Source of the DNA: a virus
Lineage: Duplodnaviria; Heunggongvirae; Uroviricota; Caudoviricetes
Virus record (IMG/VR): IMGVR_UViG_2939127364_000001
Direction: 5' to 3' (one strand)
DNA: 64,000 bases
Shown here: positions 50,071 to 50,156 of the stretch, piece by piece
Layout of the letters: each line of letters begins with the position of its first letter
Position numbering within the stretch: the stretch's first letter is position 1
Made by a program: the position numbers and the translations under genes
Notes under the pieces: model-generated
The model's database searches: none
The model's input: only the letters and a program-made list of their open reading frames with translations
Told to the model about the DNA's origin: nothing

Positions 50071-50156
50071 CAGGTCTGGGAGTCTCTGATATAAAACAGC
50101 CTGCTTCCGTATATTAATAATTAATATGTAGTTATTTATATATACAGAAGCAGGCT
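50071..50156. repeat. Long imperfect inverted repeat, copy 2 (homologous to 18322-18420)
   Basis: AGGTCTGGGA...GCCTGCTTCCGTATAT..AT-rich core..ATATACAGAAGCAGGC; between the Dam-like gene 3' end and the next gene. Confidence 0.6.

Follow-up and report, generated by a model that had tools for sequence, protein, structure and literature searches.

What is the function of a long palindrome placed between two co-directional genes of a phage-plasmid, and why do its arms recur 32 kb away? These questions are raised by the region downstream of a Dam-like methyltransferase (MTase) gene in the 64,000-nt stretch of DNA analyzed here, referred to below as the window. The window is from an SSU5-type phage-plasmid of E. 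coli, with 94-95% identity both to phage Cyrano (pLF82) and to many plasmids of ~110 kb; the MTase region alone matches 686 plasmid records. Nearly all genes of the window are on the minus strand.

Two copies of a long palindrome in the window

The core palindrome downstream of the MTase gene (copy 2; 50098..50156, minus strand) consists of two 17-nt GC-rich arms, GCCTGCTTCCGTATAT and TATATACAGAAGCAGGC, separated by a 23-nt spacer of ~90% A+T. In plus-strand letters the left arm (50099..50115), which includes the box and the TATA part, reads GCCTGCTTCCGTATATT, and the right arm (50139..50155) reads TATATACAGAAGCAGGC. Directly 3' of the hairpin, and on the coding strand only, is a T-tract (CTGTTTTATA on the minus strand; 50088..50097). 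The initial annotation started the repeat at 50071 and so took in, beyond the core palindrome, the flanking motif AGGTCTGGGAG (CTCCCAGACC on the minus strand; 50072..50082), which is common to both flanks of copy 1; together with 50162-50172 this motif forms a partial outer stem of copy 2. The element lies between the stop codon of the MTase gene (50178..50771, minus strand; Pfam Dam, 2.4e-38), the last gene of the upstream transcription unit, and the minus-strand gene of ORF76 (49761..49991), in agreement with the site given originally. ORF76 is a small helical protein (phrog_5343) of 76 aa from the ATG at 49991, or of 84 aa if the start is at 50015. It is predicted to form a helical hairpin and gave no informative structural match. 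In all relatives, the gene that comes next after copy 2 encodes a homologue of ORF76.

The other copy in the window (copy 1) has its core palindrome at 18343..18399 on the minus strand, between an 88-aa winged-helix gene and terS and ~115 nt upstream of the latter. It has no T-tract, and is part of an extended hairpin (18322..18420, minus strand; -50.6 kcal/mol, z = -10.4) with the outer stems GGTCTGGG and CCCAGACC. The two copies had been described as equivalent in position. Both are intergenic between co-directional minus-strand genes, with MTase and ORF76 at the sides of copy 2 and with the 88-aa protein (ORF88) and terS at the sides of copy 1.

When the 17-mer arm was used as a query with up to three mismatches, exactly four matches were obtained in the window, corresponding to the two arms of the two copies; 0.07 were expected from shuffled sequences, and none of 100 shuffles reached four. 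A generic inverted-repeat scan of the 64 kb (arms of at least 12 bp, at most one mismatch, A+T-rich loop of 15-75 nt) returned these two elements only. The same was seen with a covariance model built from relatives, whose only matches in the window were 18332-18410 (92.8 bits, E 8.5e-16) and 50088-50166 (84 bits, E 5.6e-14). Copies 1 and 2 are 82% identical over 57 nt, with a longest common exact run of 23 nt, and are thus two homologous structured elements with the same arms, as first proposed. The identical stretches in this alignment are the GC-rich parts of the arms, and the similarity is therefore not one of low-complexity AT-rich sequence. The direct orientation of the copies was assigned from the conserved asymmetry of the loop, the position of a G.U pair and the covariance-model scores; since the model was built on coding-strand sequences, the difference in score between orientations is partly circular. 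From these results, and from its distribution among relatives described below, the palindrome is a real, non-random and family-wide cis-element.

Distribution of the element among relatives

In SSU5-type phage-plasmids the element is a 55–60-base palindrome at fixed gene-block boundaries. SSU5 itself has exactly three copies, located upstream of terS, downstream of the MTase gene and upstream of the block encoding phrog_2500, a DnaB-like helicase and primase. In Cyrano the third copy is at 31147-31223 of that genome, outside the region corresponding to the window, and a Kluyvera contig of 108.7 kb likewise contains three copies. For Y. pestis pMT1 and S. Typhi pHCM2, which were compared in their terS regions, at least the terS copy is present. 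Among 80 MTase and 76 TerS loci from IMG/VR the element keeps its position in the E. coli, Salmonella, Klebsiella and related lineages, and the three syntenic positions are kept from E. coli to Aeromonas. A MITE or other mobile palindrome was rejected as an explanation on the basis of these constant sites, at which no flanking duplications were seen. A search of viral contigs with the bare 14-mer arm gave chance matches only, and megablast of a divergent locus (L081) against plasmids gave no match. The literature searched on SSU5 termini, palindromes and promoters contained nothing relevant, and as far as searched the element is undescribed.

The 32 kb of DNA between the copies encodes ParB-like proteins, a DEAD helicase, a methionyl-tRNA synthetase, an Mrp-type ATPase and a type I restriction-modification system. 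The latter is complete (hsdM, hsdS and hsdR; 38649-44765) and is cargo, missing from the corresponding region of Cyrano; its hsdS gene has internal direct repeats at 40222/40861 and 40625/41276. The genes for the full-length methionyl-tRNA synthetase (34229-36391) and for the Mrp/NBP35-type P-loop ATPase (36420-37520) are found in Cyrano as well.

Conservation of sequence and of pairing

On the minus strand copy 2 has a computed folding energy of -38.7 kcal/mol (z = -6.2 vs shuffled sequences). The predicted coding-strand RNA has a stem of 17 contiguous pairs including one G.U pair, of which the 9-10 basal pairs are GC-rich, with an AU-rich top and a partly paired 23-nt spacer. Both strands of the element fold well, and the minus strand folds best because a C.A mismatch on the plus strand corresponds to a G.U pair on the minus strand.

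To what extent the family conserves this structure was judged from 44 distinct variants. Nine of the 16 pairs are invariant, while positions 6, 8 and 9 vary and assort independently between the arms; at position 9 the pair states were TG (15 variants), TA (5), CA (9) and CG (15). Wobble pairs show no strand bias, with 18 on the coding strand vs 15 on the other strand. In total, 93.7% of the cells were paired compared with 93.5 +/- 0.6% in shuffles, 217 of 500 shuffles being at least as high, and the covariation score of 0.062 was not above that of shuffles. Searches of Rfam gave no match at the gathering threshold and, below it, only generic long-hairpin matches to miRNA precursor families. 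With no family match and no compensatory base-pair change, a conserved structured RNA of the Rfam type was rejected. In the close family, conservation of both arms is at the level of sequence, and pairing does not exceed that of the shuffled controls.

Half-sites in distant genomes

In the lineage of the window each unit consists of an A/T tract with TAAATA-TAT followed by the GC box CGGAAGCAGGC, and this box is present in every arm of the E. coli, Salmonella, Klebsiella, Yersinia and Kluyvera types. K. oxytoca pCAV1752-111, with a TerS 65% identical, has three copies of a different, CCAGAGCAAGGC-like box. Here, as in loci L074-L083, the palindrome is missing at the syntenic MTase and helicase positions. 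In its place in pCAV1752-111 is a single half, TTTAAATACTATCCAGAGCAAGGCT or ..CTGGAGCCAGGCT, after an A/T tract of ~35 nt. The half-site at those positions is followed by an unrelated canonical terminator, for example AAGAGATTCAGGCAC..GTGCCTTAATCTC and T5, while the terS position of K. oxytoca has a degenerate inverted repeat and T8.

Other IMG/VR genomes have the arms GCCTTGCTCCCATA or GCCGTGYTCCSATA with spacers of ~50-88 nt. In one IMG/VR genome we found four identical 21-mers, TAAATACTATGGGAGCTAGGC, of which two belong to inverted pairs at syntenic positions, the other two being solo and antisense to the genes beside them. The Aeromonas phage-plasmid (TerS 30% identical, 58% GC) contains three boxes of the form TAGAAG..GCGAG..AAAGTGATTAT, each beside an A/T tract of ~45 nt: one in sense orientation upstream of terS, one antisense upstream of the helicase block, and one as an inverted pair. 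Across genomes the half-sites are thus single or inverted, with spacers of 23-88 nt where inverted, and the solo half-sites of the distant genomes form no hairpin.

What is conserved, then, is the asymmetric half-site of A/T tract plus GC box, which is specific to each genome and common to all copies within it, a pattern of concerted evolution. A half-site that is independent of orientation, tolerant of spacing and genome-specific points to a sequence-specific trans-acting factor that would read the box, most simply at the DNA level. Since solo half-sites form no hairpin and some of them are antisense to genes, the conserved core function is probably something other than an RNA hairpin.

A putative terminator after the methyltransferase gene

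Our preferred reading, to which we give about an even chance, is that copy 2 acts as an intrinsic terminator after the MTase gene and that it is built from a conserved recognition box for a putative factor. According to this model, transcription of the long minus-strand unit, running from nucleotide metabolism genes to the Dam-like MTase gene, would pass through both arms, and the RNA is predicted to form the 17-bp hairpin with its GC-rich base followed directly by UGUUUUAU, as computed for both fold and tract. RNA polymerase would stop at this point, and the next unit (orf76, RNase H and onward) would thereby be insulated, having its own conserved TAAAAT/TAGAAT -10-like sequence ~70 nt further on. 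Each arm would at the same time be a lineage-specific recognition unit whose sequence is preserved at each of the three boundaries. A phage-plasmid factor would probably bind this unit at the DNA level, and this putative box-binding factor would coordinate all three boundaries.

The putative terminator role of copy 2 is supported by the strand on which the T-tract is found. Among 24 copy-2 variants a T-tract (at least four T in the 8 nt 3' of the hairpin) was present on the coding strand in 19 and on the other strand in none; in the window CUGUUUUAUA follows directly after the stem. T-tracts also follow copy 3 in SSU5 and Cyrano (TCTTTTTCT and TCTTTTAAAG). A T-tract was found in none of 19 copy-1 variants, and it is missing from copy 2 in lineages L043 and L069-L073, so that termination cannot be the function shared by the whole family. 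The strand-specific T-tract, which is retained in diverged lineages, taken together with the unrelated terminators at the same positions in other genomes, argues that termination is a conserved function of this boundary, supplied here by the palindrome. Of the features of an intrinsic terminator, copy 2 has the GC-rich stem and the U-tract 3' of it, but a 23-nt spacer in place of a short loop of ~3-8 nt. It was not called by a simple consensus terminator scan.

A -10-like hexamer, TAAAAT (50023-50028, minus strand), is found ~70 nt downstream of copy 2 and ahead of orf76. It is conserved within CCAGACGCTyTArAATCG, as TAAAAT in E. coli types and as TAGAAT in Salmonella and Klebsiella types, and could be the promoter of the downstream unit. 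CYRAN_81, located just downstream of this hexamer, is reported to be expressed 12-fold above background in the LF82 lysogen (PMC9928086). On the side of copy 1, a separate terminator-like hairpin, AGAGCGCATGGACGCGCTCT followed by GTGTGTTTTAG (18245..18266, minus strand), is found directly upstream of the terS ribosome-binding site. The sequence of this hairpin is kept in close relatives, and a different hairpin is present there in K. oxytoca and Aeromonas. A hairpin at this site suggests regulated read-through into the packaging/late operon.

Alternative functions

The elements could also be lytic replication origins or initiator-binding sites, in which a box beside an easily melted A/T tract would be used by the phage-plasmid's own helicase-primase-polymerase set. 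We regard this as unlikely. The box with a 35-50 nt A/T tract is kept throughout the lineages, including the Aeromonas element with its 58% GC, and the sites are independent of orientation and tolerate a variable spacer. In the lineage of the window an A+T core is flanked by an inverted pair of them, an arrangement comparable to the oriS/oriL palindromes of herpesviruses or to SPP1 oriL/oriR. In addition, one copy is always directly upstream of the phrog_2500-DnaB-like helicase-primase block, and the plasmid oriV with its iterons lies elsewhere (63.4-63.96 kb), which makes a separate lytic origin plausible. However, three origins would be unusual, no initiator was found, and phrog_2500 is without known function. 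The strand-specific T-tract at copies 2 and 3 would be left unexplained, and GC skew in the composition profile is unchanged at both 18.3 and 50.1 kb.

Rather unlikely, in our judgment, is a phage-specific class of promoter or operator. Here the whole half-site, in which the A/T tract with TAAATA-TAT precedes the GC box as initially transcribed region, would act as a promoter or as a repressor operator that overlaps a promoter. Its inverted pairs would be bivalent or divergent forms, comparable to the mono- and bivalent C1 operators of P1. A sense box precedes the starts of terS and of the orf76 homologue by only 35-45 nt in distant genomes, with a common CACTGCGG leader and no terminator between, and each of three long co-directional gene blocks has a site at its head. 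The operators in the P1 record (NC_005856) are asymmetric 17-bp sites, single or in inverted overlapping pairs with their AT-rich ends inward. This reading is, however, difficult to reconcile with the right half of the E. coli-type copy 1, which lacks a TAnnnT hexamer beside the box, with the missing conserved -35, with the several solo sites antisense to flanking genes, and with the K. oxytoca box, which is directly followed by a strong terminator. Neither a C1 nor an Lpa homologue was found, no box is near the candidate repressor genes, and the window contains only two elements.

An RNase III processing site or mRNA-stabilizing hairpin between cistrons, as in the intercistronic R sites of T7, would be compatible with a terminator and would suit the position of the elements, intergenic within long polycistronic units, as well as their long near-perfect coding-strand helices (copy 2 has 17 bp and extensions to these, copy 1 has ~40 paired positions). 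The lack of covariation and of a wobble strand bias, and the solo half-sites that do not fold, make this improbable.

The probability is very low for a cos- or pac-related packaging signal, in which the terminase would read the palindrome and copy 2 would serve as a secondary site or a decoy. TerL is of the T4-like Terminase_6 type, which is usually headful; if copies 2 and 3 were functional cutting sites, the genome would be broken into pieces, and copy 2 is 32 kb from terS. In favor of such a signal are the proximity of copy 1 to terS and the linear SSU5 record (NC_018843), which is split within copy 1, 9 nt from the palindrome center (window 18360-18362), with an identical position 1 in Cyrano (OV696614). 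The Cyrano paper (PMC9928086), however, reports no end mapping, the Cyrano start having probably been copied from SSU5, and several IMG/VR contigs break near palindromes, which suggests assembly breaks at hairpins. The ends of the SSU5 and Cyrano records within copy 1 may represent a genuine end of virion DNA or a break in the assembly at the hairpin. The end of the p4727 record near copy 2 was rejected as a terminus, as this record simply starts at the ATG of ORF76.

Finally, it is scarcely credible that the two copies are the ends or markers of a single inserted element, bracketing a block of host genes and serving as substrates for homologous recombination, as the initial annotation had suggested: although they are direct repeats 32 kb apart, and the same arm variants occur in different copies and arms so that gene conversion is possible, all relatives have three copies, at conserved places of the backbone, the DNA in between consists of backbone and cargo, there are no target-site duplications, perfect identity extends over only 23 nt, and no hybrid junction (MTase-terS or orf88-orf84) was present among ~80 MTase and ~76 terS loci from IMG/VR.

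Candidate factors and other repeated sites

In the search for a protein that might read the box of the preferred terminator model, we considered the products of neighboring genes and known classes of site. ORF88 (18423-18689), which adjoins copy 1, is predicted to be a MarR-like winged-helix protein (pLDDT 82, TM 0.7-0.76). As its recognition helix hardly changes between genomes whose boxes differ, ORF88 is an unlikely reader of the box; the conserved AAAACAAnTTGTTTT palindromes are its more likely target. That ORF88 reads the AAACAAnTTGTTTTCTTATTGG motif is plausible, its recognition helix being conserved across lineages. This palindromic motif occurs at no fewer than eight sites (18290-18310, 23900, 28388, 30793, 31272, 32679, 34081/34129 and 46945); two of these occurrences are between copy 1 and terS and are conserved there in K. 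oxytoca.

The box is not an iteron or operator of RepA, since the K. oxytoca iterons, ACCGCTGACAGCATAC, are unrelated to the box of that plasmid, CCAGAGCAAGGC, and there is no co-variation; the iterons of the window, TTGCTCCCTATAGTGG, resemble the arms of one distant lineage. The iterons of the window form two arrays of ~20-bp units with a consensus near ACTCTCTATAGTGGTTAT (63440-63580 and 63830-63960) that flank a segment with GATC-rich and A+T-rich stretches, and this region (63.4-63.96 kb) is the plasmid-type oriV of the phage-plasmid.

When P1 C1 and Lpa were compared by tblastn with the window, SSU5, the K. oxytoca plasmid and the Aeromonas plasmid, only noise was obtained (E > 0.8). As in P1 C1-type systems, an asymmetric site occurs both singly and as inverted pairs; this agreement is one of architecture only, and a C1-family repressor was not found. 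A LexA box (CTGT-N8-ACAG) was rejected as well: the half-sites in the arms are CTGTATAT-like, but the distance to the partner is ~37 nt and one half of the variants have CCGT, and the arms of neither copy contain a full CTGT-N8-ACAG box. The arm core CTTC(C)GTATA resembles a loxP arm, but a tyrosine-recombinase core of the lox or dif type has arms of 11-13 bp and a spacer of 6-8 bp, compared with spacers of 23-88 nt here. Both the LexA half-site and the loxP-arm resemblances were judged coincidental. A T4 MotA box and an IHF site were dismissed on spacing or sequence.

A further palindrome of 20 bp, ATAGGTAAGTGnTTACCTAT (ATAAGTAAG-n2-CTTACTTAT), is present at 11 or more intergenic sites of ~20 bp each in the window (2822, 12894, 14815, 16322, 21843, 48565, 50783, 55626, 55780, 56901 and 62332). 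Most of these are 10-30 nt upstream of a minus-strand start codon, one of them 11 nt ahead of the ATG of the MTase gene, and the palindrome also precedes CYRAN_31 in Cyrano and is found in the Aeromonas phage-plasmid. Its role is probably that of the principal phage-specific operator, promoter or motif for translational control.

Comparison with known systems

Several characterized systems share single features with the element. The stoperators of mycobacteriophage L5 are asymmetric intergenic repressor sites that block elongation. They resemble the element as a recognition sequence dispersed between genes at transcription-unit boundaries, a likeness of location alone, and differ from it in having ~30 copies in a single orientation and no palindrome. 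The linear phage-plasmid N15 has four SopB-binding inverted repeats scattered in its replication and late-gene control regions, and in both cases a few identical inverted repeats are dispersed near functions of this kind. In contrast to N15, the Aeromonas site is far from ParA and solo half-sites exist. In HSV, oriS and oriL have inverted protein-binding boxes that flank an A+T-rich core and are present in several copies per genome, as are the boxes described here, which differ in having no known initiator and in their T-tract asymmetry and placement after a stop codon, which are not features of origins.

The operators of P1 C1 are asymmetric 17-bp sites, ATTGCTCTAATAAATTT, that are monovalent or bivalent (NC_005856). 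Like the half-sites they combine AT-rich and GC-containing parts, mark a few control points of a phage-plasmid, and are single or inverted with the AT-rich ends inward. Unlike them, the half-sites have no C1 homologue to bind them, are 23-88 nt apart and not overlapping, number 3-5 per genome, and are not found at a repressor gene.

With intrinsic terminators, copy 2 shares a stem whose base is GC-rich and which a T-tract follows on the transcribed strand, just past a stop codon, and in both the palindrome may be a protein site. Terminator palindromes may double as transcription-factor sites, as for the LexA site in the yobI terminator, and have been described as "promoter-coupled terminators" (Fletcher et al., bioRxiv 10.64898/2026.08.19.745784). 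Copy 2 differs in its 23-nt spacer and AU-rich upper stem, and the family in reusing the same 17-nt arms at three loci with sequence conserved across genera; one copy is without a T-tract, and the terminator activity is predicted.

Biological significance

Candidate functions of the box, and hence of the palindrome family, are terminator-linked recognition, a lytic origin and a promoter or operator. A broader proposal, which we consider possible but tentative, is that the half-site unit is recognized by a trans-acting system of SSU5-type phage-plasmids not described before, either a lytic origin set or a phage-specific transcription class, by which the replication, early/accessory and packaging modules would be linked; the terminator-forming palindrome would then be a derived, double-use version. 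If the element is a terminator only, the result is a tidy but ordinary annotation. If the proposal is true, the box system would be a control point of a clinically widespread group of plasmid-phages, since at least the copy near terS is present in Y. pestis pMT1 and S. Typhi pHCM2, both members of the group. SSU5-like phage-plasmids, which are common in Enterobacteriaceae, transport cargo for resistance and defence, and hardly any of their regulatory and replication cis-elements have been charted. The three-copy element marks the main module boundaries of these genomes and offers a handle for mapping transcription units, for the search for the box factor, and for engineering and typing.
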